Shown here piece after piece: positions 1,359 to 59,386 of a DNA stretch of 64,000 bases. The stretch is from sequence record NC_047979.1. The stretch is one strand, 5' to 3'. The notes below the pieces were generated by a model. It did no database searches, was not told the origin of the DNA, and saw only the letters and a program-made list of their open reading frames with translations. The number at the start of each line of letters is the position of its first letter. The first letter of the stretch is position 1. The DNA is from Escherichia phage Gostya9. The position numbers and the translations under genes are program-made.

Positions 1359-3023
1359 TTACGCGAAAAATTTGCCGTTTTTAAAGTCGATTAACGTGCG
1401 CTGCCCGTTCGCATATGTAATTACATGCGTTTGCGTCCAGCTTGATGCGCCCACGTTATAGCCCATGTCGAGGCTGCCCGATACGCCAGCAGTATATACG
1501 CCGCCGTAAATGCTGGCGGTATGGGTATGCCCCGTGTTTAATTTGCCCAACTTTTTAAACTGTTTCGGATTGCCACGACTCCCGTTAATGCCGTTGTGAC
1601 CGTGTACACCACACTCAATGCCTGCAATTTTAAATGATTGATCAGTGGTCAGGAAAATGGCGTTAAATTCACAACCTGCAACCTTACGTAGCGCATAATC
1701 AAGCACGTTGAAAGTATCGTCATTTTCTGCAATAGCTCCATAGATCGCGGCATTCAGGCGGTGATATAGTTCCGCGTTTGCTGGATCGTCTTTAATGTTA
1801 GCATTACGATCATCCAGCCAGCGAGATAGCGCCAGATCGTGGTTTGATTCAACGATGATTGTTTGCGAGAAATCGCGCTCCATTGATTCCAATACGCGGC
1901 CAGTATCAATGAGATCGTCCAGAACTTTATCACGTCCGGCGGCGTATTGTTTCGCTAGGAATACGCCCGATGCGCGGTTATGGTGGTTGCGTGATGTAAA
2001 GTCATGCACATCATGCACAAACTGATATTTTGGCTTGAGAATATCAAGCAAACTATTTTCGCCCGCCCATGACGCTGCGGCGCACGCCTTATCTAATTTT
2101 TCAGCGTGCACGTCGCCATACTGTAAACCTAAAACATGCCCCGATGTTTCATAGCATCCGGCGGGAGTGGCGCAAATATTCAAATCATAAAAAACGCCGG
2201 TTTCATCCATCGTCTCAAGCTGGCGAACAAAAAATGCCCCGTCCTCGTCGAACTCGACAATCAGCGCGCCAAAGTTATGTAACGCTTCGGCTTTTTGTCC
2301 TGCTTTCTGCTGAATGTAGTTTTTTAGCGTTGCCGCTCCCGTTGAGTACATACGGCGCACTACTTCACCTTTGAGCGCTGGGACACTTTCGGCGGTGATT
2401 TTTGCCGCTCCAATTGCCAGACCTTCAAGATCAAGCGCTGTTGCAGTCTCAGCGAATCCAGAAAGCGGATAGTCTGCCGTTGGCAAAACATTAATTTCAG
2501 CCATGAAAGCAAAGCGGCGATTATTTAAAAACACGTTTTTGCTGCAAATATATTTATCAAATACGGAGTCATATTTGATCCCGTCCGCGCCTTCTCCATT
2601 CTGGAATCCTTTTTTGTTATAAATGAACTTGCTAACCAGCAAATCAGCGCCGATAAATTGGGCGTAATGTTCAAGTGAGGCTAAAAAGTTTTTATGCGGG
2701 AACGTGTTGTTCTGGATTGATGTTATAATAAAGCGTTTACCCTGCTTTACTTCCCACTGTTCAACCGTGCTAGAAACAATACCCGCCGCCTCTGGGCGCT
2801 CGTCGTTTTTAATGGCTTTTTCTACTTTCGCCGCCTTTGGTTTCGCTGGTTTATTTGCTTCTAACCAATCACAGATCGCGGTGGAATGTTTTGTTGTATC
2901 GTACACCGCTTTTGATATATCGTCGCAGACTTCCAATCTAGTAGCGCGCAGACGTTTACCGTAAAAATTAAAATCAGCGGCCAGCTTCAGGATAACGGTT
3001 TGTTTTTCTGCGGAAATAACCAT
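1359..3023 (-). CDS. A1: A1-like pre-early protein with C-terminal metallophosphoesterase motifs
   Basis: 554-aa ORF; GVHGHNG and GHTHT phosphoesterase-type motifs near C-terminus; size close to T5 A1 as recalled (~556 aa). Confidence 0.75.
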   Translation of the reverse strand: MVISAEKQTVILKLAADFNFYGKRLRATRLEVCDDISKAVYDTTKHSTAICDWLEANKPAKPKAAKVEKAIKNDERPEAAGIVSSTVEQWEVKQGKRFIITSIQNNTFPHKNFLASLEHYAQFIGADLLVSKFIYNKKGFQNGEGADGIKYDSVFDKYICSKNVFLNNRRFAFMAEINVLPTADYPLSGFAETATALDLEGLAIGAAKITAESVPALKGEVVRRMYSTGAATLKNYIQQKAGQKAEALHNFGALIVEFDEDGAFFVRQLETMDETGVFYDLNICATPAGCYETSGHVLGLQYGDVHAEKLDKACAAASWAGENSLLDILKPKYQFVHDVHDFTSRNHHNRASGVFLAKQYAAGRDKVLDDLIDTGRVLESMERDFSQTIIVESNHDLALSRWLDDRNANIKDDPANAELYHRLNAAIYGAIAENDDTFNVLDYALRKVAGCEFNAIFLTTDQSFKIAGIECGVHGHNGINGSRGNPKQFKKLGKLNTGHTHTASIYGGVYTAGVSGSLDMGYNVGASSWTQTHVITYANGQRTLIDFKNGKFFA

Positions 3024-3120
3024 AATATTAAAACTCCATTAAAGGGATTAAGAACGTTTGTTATTGGCAAATATTGCCAAATATAACGCTGCTTATTAAC
3101 AGCGTTATAATTTGCAATAC

Positions 3121-3366
3121 TTAATTAAGCGGCATCAGGCTAGAACTAACACCACAAACAACGGCGGCAATAAAACAAAATAAGCCTAAACGCTTTGCCA
3201 GCTTTGACTTGCGTTTAAAATAATACGAATCCAGATCATTTTGGAAATATGCAAACAATAATGAGGCCGCCACAATAAATAAGCCTAGAATTAACGATTC
3301 AGTGGGATAAAAGATCATTTTAATAATTCCAGTTAAAGGGAAATTATAGTGGGGAGTATTCCCCAC
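3121..3366 (-). CDS. small membrane protein
   Basis: 81-aa ORF with two hydrophobic segments. Confidence 0.45.
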   Translation of the reverse strand: MGNTPHYNFPLTGIIKMIFYPTESLILGLFIVAASLLFAYFQNDLDSYYFKRKSKLAKRLGLFCFIAAVVCGVSSSLMPLN

Positions 3367-3375
3367 TAATTAAGT

Positions 3376-3792
3376 TTATTCACCTGCTGACTGTTTTACT
3401 TCATCTGCTACGCCTAGTAATTGCGCTACGGCGTCCAGCGTTTCTAATTTTGCGCTTTCCAGGCTTGCCAGATCGTCAGCGTCTTTGATAATGCCGGAAT
3501 CAATGGCGTGTTTTGCAATTACACGCACATAATGCGCCTTGCGGATTGAACTACCGCCGCCAACTTTGCGCGGTTTATCGCTTTTCTGATACGCTTTTGC
3601 GCTGGTCAATTTTGAGCGAACAGACACAGGGGAAGTAGCGCCCACTGTTTTGGCGATCTCTTTCAGGCCGTCGCTGTTGGCGAACTCAAGGCCGTTTTCA
3701 TTGATTAACTGCTGATACATAGAAACGGCTTTTTGGGTATTTTCTTCATTCCATGCAAATTTTGCGGATTTTTCGGTTTTAACGTTAGTCAT
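3376..3792 (-). CDS. putative HTH DNA-binding pre-early protein (possible A2-like)
   Basis: 138-aa ORF; helix-turn-helix-like segment LKEIAKTVGATSPVSVRSKL; conserved RBS context; A2 assignment is a guess. Confidence 0.45.
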   Translation of the reverse strand: MTNVKTEKSAKFAWNEENTQKAVSMYQQLINENGLEFANSDGLKEIAKTVGATSPVSVRSKLTSAKAYQKSDKPRKVGGGSSIRKAHYVRVIAKHAIDSGIIKDADDLASLESAKLETLDAVAQLLGVADEVKQSAGE

Positions 3793-3893
3793 GGTATAAA
3801 CTCCAATTAATTTAATTTAAGGGATAAGATTAACATAATGTTAATCGTTATATTTCCCCGAACTATTGGGGAAATATAAAGTTAACACTAAAC

Positions 3894-4145
3894 TTATGCT
3901 ACAGCTTCCCATTTTTCGTTACGCTGGGCAACCTTTACAACGTCGCCAGATTTAACGCGAACGCTAAAAACGGTTTTTCCGTTGTTGCTACGTTCCGTTT
4001 CTGCATATACTGCATCAATTACATCAAAAGGCATAAGCGCCGCGCCTTTGATGCGTTCGGCTTTTCCGGTTGCCTCGTCCGTTTTAGTAACGAAAGGGAT
4101 GAAAACGGATTGACCAATTTTTGGCGCGGTGATAGCGTTTTTCAT
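3894..4145 (-). CDS. hypothetical protein
   Basis: 83-aa ORF with GGAG RBS context upstream. Confidence 0.45.
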   Translation of the reverse strand: MKNAITAPKIGQSVFIPFVTKTDEATGKAERIKGAALMPFDVIDAVYAETERSNNGKTVFSVRVKSGDVVKVAQRNEKWEAVA

Positions 4146-5200
4146 GGTATAAACTCCAGTTATTTGATGGATTGTTCCGCATTACCTGCTAGAAAAGGGA
4201 TAACAGGTAATGGGTAACGATCCGTTCGCCGTTAAAATCAATTTAAGGAACTCCACACAGGCCGCTATATCCCGTTAGGGGGCGGGACACCTTATGGCAA
4301 GTGCCGGCCGTCAAATTGTACCAAGTTATTGCTCTTGTTGAATCGGGTACATCTTAAAGCCCATCGGCTAGGGTGTCAAATTATTTTTCGTTTTCTTTTA
4401 AATTAGAATTCTCCCAACTGAATTGCATCTCGCAAAATATTTTCCCATCTTTATGATGGTAAGATATTTCGCTCCCGTGGTTAGCACAAAAAGCGATCAC
4501 TGCCTCAGCTTGTTCCACCGTGATATTGTTAGCCGTTTCTTTGATTTTCATATCGTCGATTCCTTATAAGGTTAATAAGTTTGCCGCCGATAGGCTTTAA
4601 GGTGTACCTGATTTTTAAAGAGCGCGCGGCGGTAAACTCCCCGCCGTGTAGTCCGTTGCCGTCCTACGAGATAAATAATAGGGAATACCCAAAAATGGTG
4701 CAACCTTAATTTTGTAAAGAAATGTAAAGAAAGCAAATACTCGCACCGCGTCCGGTGATCGCCCAAGTTTAAAGGAAACGAGCGCGTGGATACCATAAAA
4801 CCGAGCTGATTGGCAAGTAATTTTTTCATTTTTATTTGCCTTGCCCTACTTGACAAATTCTAAAAAGCTCGTGGTGACGATAAACGGGCTGCCCCTTTAT
4901 GATGGGATACCTGAAAAAATTATCGCGTTAGAAAGCGTTTTTGGCCGCTTATTTTCGATTTAACAAATATTTAACAAAAGCAAAAATGAAAAATAGTTTG
5001 AAAAGGCATTGACTTTTAAAAATCAAGACTAAATGAGTTATTTTATAAAATTAATTAATTGACTTTTATTTGTTGTTGTGTAGTAGAAAGATAGCAGACT
5101 AATAATTACTAGAATGATAATCATGCTGGTGGGTTGTAACAGCCTGAACTATTAGCAGACTACTGATCCCGGAAAATATCATTAGCCAACTAACTATTCC

Positions 5201-5340
5201 ATAAGTTATAATAATTATAGAAATAATAACTATAGAAATAATAACTATAGAAATAATAACTATAGAAATAATAACTATAGAAATAATAACTATAGAAATA
5301 ATAACTATAGAAATAATAACTATAGAAATAATCACCGTTA
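5201..5340. repeat. 15-bp tandem repeat (TATAGAAATAATAAC), about 8-9 copies
   Basis: period-15 repetition read directly; produces the artefactual pentapeptide-repeat ORFs 5099..5350 and 5190..5414. Confidence 0.9.
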
Positions 5341-5394
5341 TAATAATCACTATAAGAAACTAATCGGCCTAAGTGAGAACCACTATCATTTAAG

Positions 5395-5486
5395 TTATCC
5401 ACAATGTTATCCACAGCACAAAATGATTTGACACGATAGGCGGCGATATAAGGACTTATCCACAGACTTATCCACAGGTTATCCTA
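5395..5486 (+). promoter_or_regulatory. cluster of four perfect DnaA boxes (TTATCCACA) plus one imperfect
   Basis: TTATCCACA at about 5395, 5407, 5456 and 5468, all same orientation; matches E. coli DnaA box consensus. Confidence 0.7.
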
Positions 5487-5504
5487 CTGTATATTTATAC
5501 AGGG
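5485..5504. promoter_or_regulatory. LexA (SOS) box-like palindrome
   Basis: TACTGTATATTTATACAGGG versus consensus TACTGTATATATATACAGTA; CTGT-N8-ACAG core intact. Confidence 0.6.
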
Positions 5505-5871
5505 TAAAAAGATAGTGTTTACAACTGCAATCAATTTTACGCGGCCTAAATCGCTTTCTAACGGGCTGATCGCTGTAGGGTAATATTAAAGTAAAGCCTC
5601 CAGCCGTTGCCCTGGAGGCTTCGCCGTGGTTTGCTCTTTACTGCACCGCTGCGCGGTTAGCATAAAACTAGGTGTTAGGCAAGAAAATAAAAAGTAAAGT
5701 AAACGTTGCCCCTAGAAAGAAAATAATTTTACCGGTAACATCGAAAGCGGGTAATAATTAACCTAGTGTAAAGTTTTGTAAGGCCAGCCATAATCGGCGG
5801 CCTTTATTGTTATAATGCCCTTACACCGTTTAAGGACGGTTAAAAATTTCCCACTAACTAGGAGAAGAAAA

Positions 5872-16365: not shown

Positions 16366-16392
16366 TTAATCCTCCTATCAATCTATACAAAT

Positions 16393-16421
16393 ATTATACC
16401 AAAATTTTTAGCTGAAAGCAA
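16393..16421 (-). promoter_or_regulatory. sigma70-type early promoter
   Basis: TTGCTT-17-TATAAT on minus strand. Confidence 0.65.
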
Positions 16422-25893: not shown

Positions 25894-25923
25894 TTGGTTT
25901 CCCTCTCATTAATTTATATAAAT

Positions 25924-25952
25924 ATTATAGCAATAAATAAGAGAGAAAGCAA
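25924..25952 (-). promoter_or_regulatory. sigma70-type early promoter
   Basis: TTGCTT-17-TATAAT on minus strand. Confidence 0.65.
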
Positions 25953-27477: not shown

Positions 27478-27714
27478 AAATTCTTTAGTTTACTAAGGCT
27501 ATTAGCTCGGCGTAACTACAGCACCTTCGCTTCGAGCGGAAGGAACCGCGTCATCTCGCAAACCCGATACACTATTCAGTTGCCGCTGAATCTAGTGGAC
27601 TAATCTAGAACTTCTCCCGAGTCGTAGGATCGTGCTTTTTGGCAGCCAGTCCTAGGTCGAGCTAATACCTTAGTGAACTATGATGAGGATTTCTCCCCAT
27701 CAATTTATATAAAT

Positions 27715-27743
27715 ATTATAACAAGAAATTAAGCATCAAGCAA
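27715..27743 (-). promoter_or_regulatory. sigma70-type promoter heading the tRNA / small-RNA unit
   Basis: TTGCTT-17-TATAAT on minus strand; no protein gene downstream before tRNAs. Confidence 0.6.
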
Positions 27744-47578: not shown

Positions 47579-47607
47579 TTGCTTTCAGCTAAAAATATAT
47601 GTATAAT
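47579..47607 (+). promoter_or_regulatory. sigma70 promoter
   Basis: TTGCTT-17-TATAAT followed by conserved leader and GAGGAGG RBS. Confidence 0.65.
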
Positions 47608-47636
47608 AGATTTATAAATTTGAGGAGGTAGGAATT

Positions 47637-56223: not shown

Positions 56224-56532
56224 ATGAGCGATCAGGTAAACCAAAACTATGAAGGACACGTTGATGATCAGTCAATCCTTCTATGGGAAAAAGAAGGGGA
56301 ACAAATAAGATTGACAGTATCTGAATTTCGTGGGAATCTATACATGGGAATTAGGTATTGGCTCCAGGATATTACTGGAGAATGGTTTCCAACGAAATCC
56401 GGCTTCTCTTTTCCGTACACTCTAGAAACTACTTCGCAGCTATTCTATGCTTTTACGCAAATCCTTAGTGAATCTGAGGTTCTTGCCGAAGTACAGAAAC
56501 GAGCTGAAGAACTCAAAGCCAAGAATGCCTAG
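56224..56532 (+). CDS. hypothetical protein
   Basis: 102-aa ORF. Confidence 0.45.
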   Translation: MSDQVNQNYEGHVDDQSILLWEKEGEQIRLTVSEFRGNLYMGIRYWLQDITGEWFPTKSGFSFPYTLETTSQLFYAFTQILSESEVLAEVQKRAEELKAKNA

Positions 56533-56548
56533 TTCTTGGCTTTTTCTT
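56519..56548 (+). terminator. rho-independent terminator
   Basis: GCCAAGAA..TTCTTGGC hairpin followed by TTTTTC. Confidence 0.6.
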
Positions 56549-56559
56549 TATAAATGTAT

Positions 56560-56588
56560 TTGCTTTCAACTCAGTTTTGTTATATAAT
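56560..56588 (+). promoter_or_regulatory. sigma70 promoter for ligase A
   Basis: TTGCTT-17-TATAAT. Confidence 0.65.
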
Positions 56589-56619
56589 ATTTATATAAAT
56601 TAATGAGAGATATAAATAA

Positions 56620-57591
56620 ATGACTAATGTAAAAGAATTTATTAAACGCTGTCAAGAAGCATATTATCAGGGCATGTCTTTAATCTCTGATGAGGAGTAT
56701 GATCGCCTGGTAAAACGCTTCCCGTTAGAGGAAGAGATCGGGCCTAAGGGTGATATTCCACACCTATATCGTATGTATTCTTTACAGAAAGTTTATTATA
56801 ATCGTGGAGATAAACCCCCATTTGACCCGTTAGGTCAAGTAGAAACTGATAAGTTAGATGGTTGTGCGATTTCCCTGCTATATATTAACGGTGAATTTGT
56901 TCAAGCACTAACTCGTGGTAATGGTATTCTGGGAAATGATGTCACAAGCAACGTAAGATTGCTGAACATCCCTAAAAAGATTTCCCAAAAAGTACCTACT
57001 CAAATCACTGGTGAAGTTCTAATTACAAAAGAAGTAGAAAATAAACGTAACTTTGCCTCTGGTGCTATTAACCTCAAAGATAGTGATGATTTCATGCAAC
57101 GTATCGGGGAAGGTGGTTTAATCTTCGTTGCATACGGTATCCAGTGTTCTGCTGAATCTGTAGGTATTACAGAAGCGTATTTAAAAGATATGCTTTGGCT
57201 AGAGAATGAGAACTTCTTAACAGTTGTTAATGTGCGTTCCTTCTTTAAATGGATTCCGACGGACGGTAAAGTTGTTCGTATTAATGACAATAACAAATTC
57301 TTCCGTGAAGGTTGGACTAATAAATTTCCTCGTGGGGCATTCGCTATTAAAGAGGATGAAGAAGGCGAGATTACAACTCTTACTAAAGTTGAATGGCAGG
57401 TAGGGGCTTCTGGTAAAGTAACTCCAGTCGGTTATTTTGAACCAGTAATTATTGATGATGCTACAATTGTTAAAGCGACTCTTAATAATGTTGATTATAT
57501 TAACTCTCTCGATCTAGAGATCGGTTGCCAGATTCGAGTGATTCGTGCTGGTGGTGTAATCCCGTGCATAGTAGAGCGAGTTTATGATTAA
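56620..57591 (+). CDS. NAD-dependent DNA ligase, N-terminal (adenylation/OB) part
   Basis: 323 aa; adenylation motif KLDG (ETDKLDGCAIS) with flanking LigA-type sequence; ends before the Zn-finger/HhH/BRCT region. Confidence 0.75.
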   Translation: MTNVKEFIKRCQEAYYQGMSLISDEEYDRLVKRFPLEEEIGPKGDIPHLYRMYSLQKVYYNRGDKPPFDPLGQVETDKLDGCAISLLYINGEFVQALTRGNGILGNDVTSNVRLLNIPKKISQKVPTQITGEVLITKEVENKRNFASGAINLKDSDDFMQRIGEGGLIFVAYGIQCSAESVGITEAYLKDMLWLENENFLTVVNVRSFFKWIPTDGKVVRINDNNKFFREGWTNKFPRGAFAIKEDEEGEITTLTKVEWQVGASGKVTPVGYFEPVIIDDATIVKATLNNVDYINSLDLEIGCQIRVIRAGGVIPCIVERVYD

Positions 57592-57639
57592 TACATAACC
57601 CTTTGCTACCCCTCTACCATATCGGAATTATAAAGTGGT

Positions 57640-57668
57640 TATTGACATTTTCGCCGCTTAGGTATATA
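57640..57668 (+). promoter_or_regulatory. sigma70 promoter in the ligA-ligB spacer
   Basis: TTGACA-17-TATACT. Confidence 0.5.
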
Positions 57669-57734
57669 CTATTATCATTCAGTTGAGGGATAGAAAGTTA
57701 TGGCGAGGGTAAGCAAAGTTAGTTAAAATTGTAG

Positions 57735-57763
57735 TTGCTAAATGCTTAAATACTTGCTATAAT
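57735..57763 (+). promoter_or_regulatory. sigma70 promoter for ligase B
   Basis: TTGCTA-17-TATAAT. Confidence 0.65.
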
Positions 57764-57790
57764 ATTTATATAAATTGATAAGGAAGAAAT

Positions 57791-58573
57791 TTGATGAAAA
57801 TCGAAATTCCAACACAATGTCCCTCTTGTGGTTCTAAGCTAGATCTTGTCAACGGACAATTATTCTGTCGTAATAAGTCCAACTGTCCAGCGCAATCAAG
57901 TAAGTTAATTGAGAACTTCTGTACAAAAATGAAGTTAAAGGGCTTTGGCCCGAAAACTATTGAGAAGCTGGAGCTGACGAAGATTTCAGAACTATTTTAC
58001 CTAACCGAAGAAGATTTGGTTAGAGCCGTGGGTAGCAAGGTTGCCGCTAAGTTAATTAGCGAATTAAATACTAAAGTTCGCGGAGACATTGACTTTGGTT
58101 CAGTTCTCGGTTCTTTAGGAATCCCTCTAATTGGAGAGGTTGCAGCAAAGAAATTATCCCAAAATTGCACTAGCTTCCACGATGTGAAGGCTGACGGCAG
58201 GGCTGGAGAAAACTATAAAGCCTGGCTAAATTCCCCACAAGGCAAGGATGTTATCGAATTACCGTGGAAATTCACAACCGGTATTAAAGGTGCTAAAGCT
58301 GAGGTCAGCATTACTGATGGTCTAGTAGCCCAACCAAATGGAATCACGGTGTGTATTACCGGATCTTTGCAAGATTTTGCAAATAGAACGGATGCAACAA
58401 ACTATCTAGAAGGTCTAGGGTATACTGTTAAAAAATCAGTTACCAAAGACGTTAAATACCTCATCTGTGAGGATGAATCTAAGCGTTCTTCCTCATCTTA
58501 TAAGAAAGCCGAAACGAATGGGATAGAAATCCTGTCGATTAAAGAACTATTGGAGAAAAATAATAATGTCTAA
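57791..58573 (+). CDS. NAD-dependent DNA ligase, C-terminal (Zn-finger/HhH/BRCT) part
   Basis: 260 aa; N-terminal CPSCGS..C..C zinc finger then helix-hairpin-helix-like and BRCT-like regions. Confidence 0.7.
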   Translation: MMKIEIPTQCPSCGSKLDLVNGQLFCRNKSNCPAQSSKLIENFCTKMKLKGFGPKTIEKLELTKISELFYLTEEDLVRAVGSKVAAKLISELNTKVRGDIDFGSVLGSLGIPLIGEVAAKKLSQNCTSFHDVKADGRAGENYKAWLNSPQGKDVIELPWKFTTGIKGAKAEVSITDGLVAQPNGITVCITGSLQDFANRTDATNYLEGLGYTVKKSVTKDVKYLICEDESKRSSSSYKKAETNGIEILSIKELLEKNNNV

Positions 58574-59333
58574 ACTGAACTGGAACGTAGAAGGTGTAAC
58601 CGAGTCTCTGAAAGCAAAAGCCACTGCTCTGGGTGTTGCTGTAATCTCTCAAGAACAAGTAGCTGCTATCGCTGCTGAACTGGCTGCTGAAACTGGCAAA
58701 GACGTTACCGCTCGCTCTGTTGGCTCTAAGCTGCGTAAAGAAGGTTTCGAAGTACAGAAAGCTAACGAAGTACAGAAATCCCCGTGGACTCCTGAGCAGG
58801 AAGCTGAACTGGTTGATTTCCTGAACTCTCATGCTGGTCAGTATACTTATGCTGAAATCGCTGCTGCTGTAGCTGGTGGTCAATTTGGTGCTAAGCAGGT
58901 ACAGGGTAAGATCCTGAGTCTGGAAATGACCGCTTCTGTTAAACCAACTGAAAAAGCTGCTGCTGTTCGTTCCTTCACTCCTGATGAAGAAACTGATTTT
59001 GTTAATCAGGTTGTTGCTGGTGCTACTATTGAAGCTATTGCTGCTCACTTCGGTCGTAATATCAAGCAGATCCGTGGTAAAGCTCTGAGTCTGCTTCGTG
59101 AAGGTCGTATCGCTGCTATGCCGGTACAGGAAACTTCAAGTGCTAAAACTCGTGAAGATCTGCTAGAAGGTCTGGATCTGGCTAACATGACTGTTGCTGA
59201 GATCGCTGAGAAAACTGGTAAGTCTGAGCGCGGTGTTAAATCTATGCTGTCTCGTCGTGGTCTGGTTGCTAAGGACTATGATGGTGCCGCTAAGCGTGCT
59301 AAACTGGATGCAAAAGCTGCGGCTGCTGAATAA
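58566..59333 (+). CDS. protein with three tandem HTH-like repeats, GC-rich codon usage
   Basis: 255 aa; repeated T..E.A...G...R.V..KL...G modules; strong CTG/GCT codon bias unlike neighbours. Confidence 0.5.
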   Translation: MSKLNWNVEGVTESLKAKATALGVAVISQEQVAAIAAELAAETGKDVTARSVGSKLRKEGFEVQKANEVQKSPWTPEQEAELVDFLNSHAGQYTYAEIAAAVAGGQFGAKQVQGKILSLEMTASVKPTEKAAAVRSFTPDEETDFVNQVVAGATIEAIAAHFGRNIKQIRGKALSLLREGRIAAMPVQETSSAKTREDLLEGLDLANMTVAEIAEKTGKSERGVKSMLSRRGLVAKDYDGAAKRAKLDAKAAAAE

Positions 59334-59351
59334 TCTGGTAAATTAAACCTA

Positions 59352-59386
59352 AGGGGTGGGGGCTATGCCTCTACCCCTTTTTGCAT
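59352..59386 (+). terminator. terminator-like hairpin
   Basis: AGGGGTG..CACCCCT-like stem followed by TTTTT; lies inside the ORF-track N-terminus of the next gene. Confidence 0.45.

Follow-up and report, generated by a model that had tools for sequence, protein, structure and literature searches.

Organization of the ligase locus

The window analyzed here, 64,000 nt of Escherichia phage Gostya9 (NC_047979.1), contains two neighboring plus-strand genes, ligA and ligB, whose products match the catalytic and the DNA-binding parts of NAD+-dependent DNA ligases and which are separated by a short spacer carrying two promoter sequences. The features of the region, in window coordinates, are as follows.

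56224–56532, PC4-like gene (PC4 domain in the ORF), upstream of ligA
56515–56543, plus strand, terminator-like hairpin with a T-run (consensus scan), closing the upstream PC4-like gene
56540–56614, plus strand, ligA promoter, placed by position from the promoter annotated in T5 (T5 record 65284–65358)
56620–57591, plus strand, ligA, 323 aa, catalytic subunit made up of domain Ia, nucleotidyltransferase domain and OB fold
57592–57641, no strand, variable spacer segment immediately 3′ of the ligA stop; a cargo slot in some relatives, empty here
57642–57670, plus strand, core of promoter P-K28b, TTGACA-17-TATACT (scan 11/12; "promoter P-K 28b" in the T5 annotation)
57735–57763, plus strand, core of promoter P-K28a, TTGCTA-17-TATAAT with an extended −10 TG (scan 10/12; "promoter P-K 28a" in the T5 annotation)
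57780–57786, plus strand, Shine-Dalgarno-like AAGGAAG for ligB, read from the sequence and a conserved purine-rich block in alignments
57791, plus strand, alternative TTG start of ligB, giving 260 aa
57794–58573, plus strand, ligB, 259 aa, DNA-binding subunit comprising a Cys4 zinc finger, HhH repeats and a BRCT domain
58566–59333, plus strand, D5 gene (DNA-binding early protein; ORF list and T5 annotation), overlapping the ligB stop by 8 nt
59351–59379, terminator-like hairpin after D5 (consensus scan)

LigA carries the catalytic modules. It matches the Pfam nucleotidyltransferase domain (PF01653, DNA_ligase_aden; E = 2.2e-23; 83.5 bits, cut-off 27) and the OB fold (PF03120, DNA_ligase_OB; E = 4e-22; 78.3 bits, cut-off 32.9), the latter aligning with E. 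coli LigA residues 284–390. Motif I reads K78-L-D80-G81 (KxDG), and K78, D80, and G81 are invariant among the aligned relatives, as is the motif V lysine. The NMN-binding motif of domain Ia (YY...SDxEYD) is present as AYYQGMSLISDEEYDRL at LigA 14–30, with Y15, Y16, S23, E25, Y27, and D28 invariant across seven genera. In motif IV, position 220 is Arg; Lys occurs there in several aligned single-chain phage ligases, so that kinetics may differ from those of E. coli LigA. The nucleotidyltransferase domain is also ~70 aa shorter than in the E. coli enzyme.

LigB supplies the remaining modules. Its N-terminal Cys4 zinc finger (CxxC...C...C; C9, C12, C25, and C31) has all four cysteines invariant in relatives, and these align with the zinc-finger region of E. 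coli LigA, from residue 402. The BRCT domain spans residues 182–254 (PF00533; E = 1.6e-8; 35.1 bits, cut-off 21.3). The HhH repeats are placed by alignment of LigB 3–122 with E. coli LigA 402–529 (E = 5e-10); the Pfam HHH_2 match taken by itself falls under its cut-off (24.4 versus 27 bits). LigB 3–251 also aligns with Thermus LigA 400–653 (E = 1.3e-10). AlphaFold2 prediction from the LigB sequence alone reached a pLDDT of 34.7, too low for use. An earlier reading made from the letters without database searches (hereafter the sequence-only reading) had begun the second ORF at 57791. A TTG start there is possible, but ATG at 57794 is the likelier one, because it lies 9 nt after AAGGA and because orthologues start with MKI(E/Q)IP.

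The locus is very probably a phage T5-type two-subunit NAD+-dependent DNA ligase. The window belongs to Tequintavirus: its ligase region is 96.9% identical to T5 DNA in a collinear, gap-free alignment (T5 record positions minus 8744 give window positions), LigA and LigB are 99.4% and 98.1% identical to their T5 counterparts at the amino acid level, and the order PC4-like gene, ligA, ligB, D5, DnaB-like helicase is that of T5. The ligase region is 97.9% identical to the DNA of DT571/2, and the T5 and DT571/2 records both annotate ligA/ligB. In addition, LigA and LigB match chains A and B of PDB 9hu3 (E = 1e-103 and 1.3e-79, respectively), and the presence of both chains in the same PDB entries (9hu3/9i5i) suggests a complex of the LigA–LigB type. 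The sequence-only reading had proposed an NAD-dependent ligase encoded by two ORFs, with which the Pfam domains and the alignments to LigA structures agree, and its suggestion that T5 itself has a split ligase is borne out by T5 record AY543070, which annotates ligA as T5.116 and ligB as T5.117. The split ligase of T5 has been known since 2005 (Wang et al. 2005, Virology 332:45, as cited in PMC1684257), and ligase A and B subunits are named in PMC3632103 and PMC4319617. The two-gene ligase is real and conserved, yet already described and ordinary for the T5 lineage.

Promoters and constraint in the spacer

Promoters of the locus coincide with those annotated in T5. Upstream of ligA, the −10 and initial transcribed region (TATAATATTTATATAAATT, 56583–56601) exactly matches a 19-nt motif that occurs 15 times in the window versus 0.15 expected; a simple hexamer scan missed this promoter because its −35 is weak. 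The gap between ligA and ligB measures 199 nt if ligB starts at the TTG and 202 nt if it starts at the ATG. Stops interrupt all six of its frames, and no ORF of at least 30 aa fits wholly inside it. Both promoter-like elements that the sequence-only reading had seen in this spacer were found again in place and correspond to T5 P-K28b and P-K28a, whose annotated features cover window 57622–57696 and 57715–57789. Counting consensus promoter matches gives no excess over chance in the region (5 versus 7.7 expected from shuffles). The weight of the two spacer promoters comes from their being the best matches and on the coding strand, from their identity in sequence and position to T5-annotated promoters, and from hexamers that are invariant or largely kept in the otherwise diverged spacers of other genera. 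P-K28b is identical to T5, with its hexamers conserved in Klebsiella, Pectobacterium, and Providencia phages, while TTGC..N17..TATAAT of P-K28a is kept in 6/7 genus-level representatives (the −10 is TATACT in L038). The names P-K28b and P-K28a reportedly come from promoter work in Bujard's laboratory in the 1980s.

Across 28 Tequintavirus sequences, 9/50 spacer columns vary in the part directly after ligA (57592–57641), compared with 2/29 in the P-K28b core and 0/29 in the P-K28a core, and from a point slightly upstream of P-K28b to the end of P-K28a the spacer matches T5 exactly. Overall, 8.4% of spacer columns vary, a level of constraint similar to that of second codon positions. The P-K28b leader (57677–57800) folds into a hairpin (z = −3.8), but RNAalifold found no conserved base pair across seven genus-level representatives, and we dropped a candidate RNA element there. 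Rather than debris, the spacer is a conserved regulatory module that contains the predicted early promoters P-K28b and P-K28a.

Conservation of the split and alternative explanations

The break between the two genes is a fixed feature of the clade. Each of the 68 loci whose LigB shows at least 34% identity carries the split in the one linker between OB fold and zinc finger, with gaps of ~70–1375 bp, in keeping with the earlier guess that the arrangement is lineage-typical (68/68 T5-clade loci examined). The split arrangement was found in >430 independently sequenced T5-like genomes and also occurs in Vibrio, Providencia, Pectobacterium, and Klebsiella phages and in metagenomic relatives. When 20 split and 10 fused ligases are aligned across the junction, the break falls within this linker with no residues lost or added relative to single-chain LigA. 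Alignment to single-chain LigA and to the T5 subunits, a check that the sequence-only reading had called for, places the end of LigA near E. coli residue 393 and the beginning of LigB near residue 400. Among the 28 Tequintavirus sequences, third codon positions vary in 67% (ligA) and 40% (ligB) of columns, versus 9–19% for first and second positions.

These observations bear on three ways in which the locus might be something other than two working genes. That the ligase is truly one ORF, with the gap an artefact of a sequencing or assembly frameshift, was raised as a general possibility by the sequence-only reading and has nothing further in its favor; we consider its probability negligible, since such an error shifts the frame by 1–2 nt, whereas the gap is ~200 nt of conserved non-coding DNA with stops in six frames, shared by the >430 genomes and all 68 clade loci, the junction loses no residues against fused LigA, and a two-chain homologue is in the PDB. 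Phage DNA-metabolism genes frequently carry group I introns or inteins, and translational bypass is found in T4 gene 60, which gives some general appeal to the notion that the spacer is such an element and that a single polypeptide is restored. This too is extremely improbable here. A search for intron and intein remnants, likewise proposed earlier, returned none: Rfam has no match in the spacer (a scan of 56400–58800 that allowed E values up to 1 produced just two chance eukaryotic matches, both outside it), no RNA structure is conserved across genera, 200 nt would not accommodate a group I or II intron, and the alignment of split and fused ligases reveals neither intein blocks nor extra residues at either junction end. 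Moreover, ligB is equipped with separate promoters, a Shine-Dalgarno sequence, and an ATG of its own, and the PDB entry consists of two separate chains.

The pair could also be decaying pseudogenes in a phage that depends on host LigA. E. coli has its own LigA, which is essential, and the shortening of the phage nucleotidyltransferase domain by ~70 aa might be taken as a sign of decay. Against this stand the strong purifying selection evident from the codon positions, the invariance of catalytic and zinc-binding residues down to 45% identity, and the retention of the split in phages of four other host genera and in metagenomic relatives, and we judge decay very unlikely.

Cargo at the ligase junction and the origin of the split

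The slot after ligA has received diverse genes in relatives, including a GIY-YIG endonuclease in Salmonella phage SP3 (L036) and, elsewhere, NADAR, DprA-like, and radical-SAM genes; insertion points were mapped in SP3 and in L071 versus L070. In SP3, a 218-aa GIY-YIG gene lies directly 3′ of ligA. Its right flank is 99% identical to the window from 57609 on, beside a ligA end (the last ~190 nt) of just 76.7% identity. The GIY-YIG insertion is present in 2 distinct phages among ~436 T5-like records, so that in Tequintavirus it appears to be a late arrival in an already split gene. Two lineages outside the T5 clade have nuclease genes between ligase halves cut at the same linker, namely an HNH_3 gene packed into the gap in L089 and a NUMOD3 plus TnsA-like nuclease gene in L072, and a single origin of all three splits (T5 clade, L072, and L089) was recovered in 0/100 neighbor-joining (NJ) bootstraps. 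Several small gap ORFs of Vibrio phages had no Pfam match. A 10-residue match between the window and the C terminus of the SP3 GIY-YIG protein was set aside, as the SP3 ORF merely runs into the shared flank.

One possible but doubtful reading of this pattern is that the spacer is the scar of a lost homing-endonuclease gene or other mobile cargo that split a single-chain ligase, the promoters having come or evolved later. The juxtaposition of a diverged ligA end and a near-identical right flank in SP3 resembles co-conversion, nuclease genes occupy gaps at the same linker in L089 and L072, where the bootstraps give no support to a shared origin with the T5-clade split, and the pattern matches the known nrdA–mobE "genes in pieces" (Friedrich et al. 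2007, as cited in PMC3326045). On the other side, tblastn detected no remnant of an endonuclease or of any other gap ORF of the relatives in the window spacer, the GIY-YIG gene is confined to those two phages, and the gaps of the most distant split relatives are only ~70–90 nt and free of cargo. Free-standing endonuclease genes also settle in many intergenic gaps, and occupancy may follow a split rather than cause it. The suggestion in the sequence-only reading of a relic of an excised mobile element therefore fares differently at two levels: within the spacer it finds nothing (no Rfam intron match, no gap-ORF remnant, no extra junction residues), but as a guess about distant origin it is reasonable, given endonuclease genes at this slot in relatives and in two unrelated lineages.

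We tentatively sketch a broader scenario, more speculative than the identification of the ligase itself, in which the linker between OB fold and zinc finger is a recurrent breaking point and homing-endonuclease landing pad. It would have undergone at least two to three independent fissions (T5 clade, L072, and L089), each time with a nuclease gene inside the gap or close to it. Such an event would have given rise to the T5-clade split, with the endonuclease since purged, the gap now a promoter module for ligB and D5, and the slot after ligA still able to take up cargo (GIY-YIG, NADAR, DprA-like, and radical-SAM genes). Repeated endonuclease and other cargo at the same junction in independent lineages may merit a short comparative note; the literature searched yielded no paper on recurrent junction cargo in ligases.

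Proposed working of the two-subunit ligase

In the arrangement we favor, a two-subunit ligase expressed from two genes, LigA would be the catalytic core, with domain Ia binding the NMN part of NAD+ and the nucleotidyltransferase domain, followed by the OB fold, being adenylylated on Lys78 of the KLDG motif. LigB would be the DNA-clamping half, contributing the Cys4 zinc finger, HhH repeats, and BRCT domain. The two proteins, made separately, are predicted to assemble on nicked DNA as a heterodimer, and the assembled enzyme would seal nicks and Okazaki fragments during phage replication. Scanning found no terminator-like hairpin directly after ligA (57580–57680 has no unusual structure, z = 0.13), and since no terminator intervenes, transcription from the ligA promoter probably reads through into ligB. 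The spacer promoters would add transcripts for ligB and the overlapping D5, which, given its 8-nt overlap with the ligB stop, is likely co-transcribed with ligB from them. Transcription of ligB and D5 may thus exceed that of ligA.

The locus is the textbook T5 arrangement and confirms the window as a Tequintavirus early-gene region. More broadly, the T5-type ligase is a natural experiment in which the catalytic and DNA-clamping halves of LigA can act as separate proteins, which is relevant to ligase engineering and to the fission tolerance of modular enzymes.

Comparison with known systems

The closest known system is T5 itself, in which ligA and ligB (T5.116 and T5.117, AY543070) have the same order, break point, and spacer with both promoters, and from which the ligase region of the window differs by point differences only. 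The best DNA matches, DT571/2 and SP15, differ in having an extra small ORF upstream of ligA that is missing from the window and T5; these extra ORFs had no Pfam match. PDB 9HU3/9I5I comprises chain A, "DNA ligase (NAD+)" (339 aa), and chain B, "DNA ligase subunit B" (248 aa), whose aligned residues are those of LigA and LigB of Providencia phage vB_PreS_PR1 (PR1). These structures share the two-subunit architecture and break point of the window ligase, although they represent another genus (Priunavirus) and are ~54–55% identical to it.

Single-chain LigA proteins (E. coli 2OWO and Thermus filiformis 1DGS/1V9P) have six modules that recur in the window ligase in unchanged order (Ia, nucleotidyltransferase, OB, zinc finger, HhH, BRCT) and share the motif I KxDG and the Cys4 finger. 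The window ligase differs from these cellular enzymes in distributing the modules over two polypeptides rather than one, in its nucleotidyltransferase region, shorter by the ~70 aa noted above, and in having Arg for Lys in motif IV.

A parallel from another enzyme is nrdA of Aeromonas phage Aeh1, which is split by mobE (Friedrich et al. 2007 PNAS; PMC3045599; as cited in PMC3326045). In both cases an essential enzyme of DNA metabolism has been divided at a domain boundary and both resulting genes are expressed, and in the relatives SP3, L072, and L089 the likeness extends to an endonuclease gene occupying the ligase gap. In contrast to Aeh1, the gap in the window holds promoters only, and the ligase split is not a recent event but an old one, fixed throughout an entire phage family.

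The split ligase of Gostya9 is the known T5 pair

The NAD-dependent DNA ligase of this window is the ligA/ligB pair already known from T5, with its annotated P-K28b and P-K28a promoters. The main interpretation of the sequence-only reading, a ligase divided between two ORFs with two promoter-like elements in the spacer, is supported, and all four features are present:

56620–57591 (+), ligA ORF, 323 aa; NAD-ligase adenylation domain (PF01653, E 2.2e-23) and LigA OB fold (PF03120, E 4e-22)
57642–57670 (+), P-K28b site, TTGACA-17-TATACT (consensus scan)
57735–57763 (+), P-K28a site, TTGCTA-17-TATAAT with TG before the −10 (consensus scan)
57791 (TTG) or 57794 (ATG)–58573 (+), ligB ORF, 260 or 259 aa; zinc finger, HhH match and BRCT (PF00533, E 1.6e-8)

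ligB more likely starts at ATG 57794, since this codon lies 9 nt 3′ of AAGGA and orthologues start MKI(E/Q)IP; the LigB N-terminus reads CPSCG...C.....C. Across 7 genus-level representatives, down to 45% identity, K78, D80 and G81 of motif I, the domain Ia motif, the motif V lysine K244 and the four zinc-finger cysteines are invariant. Motif IV is DGKVVR, and its Arg220 (about 57277–57279) is invariant across the T5 clade, whereas several aligned single-chain phage ligases carry Lys at this position.

Over 2.4 kb, the ligase region has 97.9% identity to Escherichia phage DT571/2 and 96.9% to T5. It matches 515 phage records, and the matches listed are T5-like phages. LigA and LigB share 99.4% and 98.1% protein identity with T5, and the spacer has T5's sequence from just 5′ of P-K28b onward. 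As the earlier reading had supposed, T5 is split too: AY543070 annotates ligA as T5.116, ligB as T5.117, "subunit B", a promoter 5′ of ligA, and "promoter P-K 28b" and "promoter P-K 28a" inside the ligA–ligB gap. The two-gene T5 ligase has been in the literature since 2005 (Wang et al., cited in PMC1684257); PMC1684257 also shows that self-adenylylation persists in LigN truncated after the OB fold, and A and B subunits are listed in PMC3632103 and PMC4319617. PDB entries 9hu3 and 9i5i pair a chain A, "DNA ligase (NAD(+))", with a chain B, "DNA ligase subunit B", which match the window's LigA at E 1e-103 and LigB at E 1.3e-79; the aligned residues of chain B are those of LigB from Providencia phage vB_PreS_PR1 (PR1).

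Upstream of ligA lies a gene for a PC4-like ssDNA-binding protein (56224–56532; PF02229, E 8.5e-9). Between these two genes the window's closest relatives, DT571/2 and SP15, have an extra small ORF (66 or 90 aa) that the window and T5 lack (window 56533–56619 vs. L002 719–919 and L003 719–991, the loci of those two phages), and a Pfam search of these ORFs gave no match.

The split is old and falls in an interdomain linker

We located both halves by tblastn in 79 IMG/VR loci, picked via LigB alignment, and 9 GenBank loci. The split is lineage-typical, as had been suspected: ligA and ligB are separate ORFs in 68/68 loci where LigB identity reaches 34% and upstream DNA is available (a few genomes are present twice). 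These loci have gaps of ~70 to 1375 nt and span phages of Escherichia, Salmonella, Klebsiella, Pectobacterium, Providencia and Vibrio as well as uncultured relatives, and the 15 loci with a single-chain ligase all fall at ≤29% identity. Split T5-type ligases form one clade in 100/100 bootstraps of a neighbor-joining (NJ) tree, so the split is older than the diversification of the family.

Alignment to solved LigA structures places the LigA C-terminus at about E. coli LigA residue 393 and LigB residue 3 at residue 402. In an alignment of 20 split phage ligases with 10 single-chain ones, the cut lies in the linker that joins the last residues of the OB fold, GG(V/I)IPxIV, to the zinc finger, IPxxCPxCG, with no residues lost or gained.

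These data bear on several explanations for two ORFs. A sequencing-error frameshift, raised in the sequence-only reading, is ruled out by a 199–202-nt gap with stops in 6/6 frames and by a family-wide split; from the sequence comparisons, neither a sequencing artefact nor recent pseudogenisation can be the source. Intron or intein remnants, which that reading proposed to seek in the spacer, were not seen: no Rfam family matched the spacer, and the junction has no added residues. Taken together, the data contradict a frameshift artefact, an intron, an intein, a bypass and a pseudogene alike.

The spacer is conserved as a promoter module

Consensus promoter matches in the region are no more numerous than expected by chance, so the weight of the two sites comes from comparative evidence rather than match count.

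Alignment columns that vary across 28 distinct Tequintavirus-level sequences
Third codon positions, ligA / ligB: 67% / 40%
Second codon positions, ligA / ligB: 12% / 9%
Whole spacer: 17/202 (8.4%)
First 50 nt 3′ of the ligA stop: 9/50
P-K28b core: 2/29
Between P-K28b and P-K28a: 3/64
P-K28a core: 0/29

Judged by such comparisons, the spacer is functional. In other genera it has diverged, yet both hexamer pairs and the extended −10 TG are largely retained. A 19-nt string of P-K28a, TATAATATTTATATAAATT, spanning the −10 and the initial transcribed bases, has a second copy 5′ of ligA and, at ≤3 mismatches, 15 matches in the window vs. 0.15 expected (for example 16380–16398 (−), 25911–25929 (−), 27702–27720 (−), 47602–47620 (+), 56583–56601 (+) and 57758–57776 (+)). 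The set is consistent with a family of T5 early promoters. Matches lie on the − strand at ~16–33 kb and on the + strand from ~47 kb, the sole exception being a + match at 5207, a pattern that looks like a mark of divergent transcription blocks.

The predicted P-K28b leader (57677–57800, +) forms a long hairpin in which 57697–57707 pairs with the P-K28a −10 region (−26.1 kcal/mol, z = −3.8, 0/200 shuffles); no consensus RNA structure for this leader was found across genera. It also contains an SD-like GAGGGA and, 9 nt downstream of it, a mini-ORF of 8 codons (57685–57726, +; ATG 57700 to TAA 57726, MARVSKVS). A 9-codon mini-ORF occupies the matching place in PR1, and none occurs in Klebsiella and Pectobacterium phages; the mini-ORF is probably due to chance.

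We found no terminator-like hairpin 3′ of ligA. D5, the next gene, has a start codon that overlaps the stop of ligB; from there, the first terminator-like hairpin is at 59351–59379. The ligA promoter would yield a transcript of ligA, ligB and D5, and P-K28b and P-K28a would add ligB and D5 transcripts, so that the spacer promoters may serve D5 no less than ligB. Residues 204–230 of D5 (58566–59333) weakly match sigma-70 region 4/HTH (PF08281, E 5.2e-7).

Relatives carry cargo between the ligase halves

Cargo in relatives sits directly 3′ of the ligA stop and 5′ of the conserved promoter module; two loci outside the T5 clade also have genes between the halves:

Salmonella phage SP3 (L036), 4184–4840 (MG387042): 218-aa GIY-YIG endonuclease gene directly after ligA, its start overlapping the ligA stop
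L071, 4153–4809: NADAR-domain gene (E 1.8e-31), absent from its close relative L070
Vibrio phage gaps (L042, L043, L065): DprA-like 186-aa gene and small ORFs
L048, 564–1568: radical-SAM gene
L089 (IMG/VR contig, outside the clade): split ligase at 3483–5774, an HNH_3 gene packed between its halves
L072 (618-kb IMG/VR contig, outside the clade): split ligase at 2976–5774, a NUMOD3 plus TnsA-like nuclease gene packed between its halves

The position of a NADAR (NAD/ADP-ribose-associated) gene beside an NAD-dependent ligase may not be coincidence. The GIY-YIG gap gene occurs in only 2 distinct phages (SP3 and one other) of ~436 T5-like records. Its insertion point in SP3 corresponds to about 57592–57608 of the window; against the window, identity is only 76.7% over the final ~190 nt of ligA but 99% over the right flank, the promoter module, from 57609 onward. 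This flank pattern looks like a signature of homing or co-conversion.

The spacer had also been read as a possible relic of a mobile element. No trace of one was found in the window's spacer, but an endonuclease origin is plausible, if unproven, for the T5 split in view of the nuclease cargo of relatives: nuclease genes lie between the halves at the matching linker, including in L089 and L072, which are split there like the T5 clade and retain catalytic motifs. Against such an origin, the most distant split relatives have minimal gaps without cargo, and the GIY-YIG insertion of Tequintavirus is clearly a secondary event. A common origin of the T5-clade, L072 and L089 splits is recovered in 0/100 NJ bootstraps. 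What is new here is only mildly so and lies outside the window: recurrent endonuclease-associated fission and a cargo slot at one ligase junction. The nuclease-bearing split loci of relatives resemble the "genes in pieces" of nrdA-mobE.
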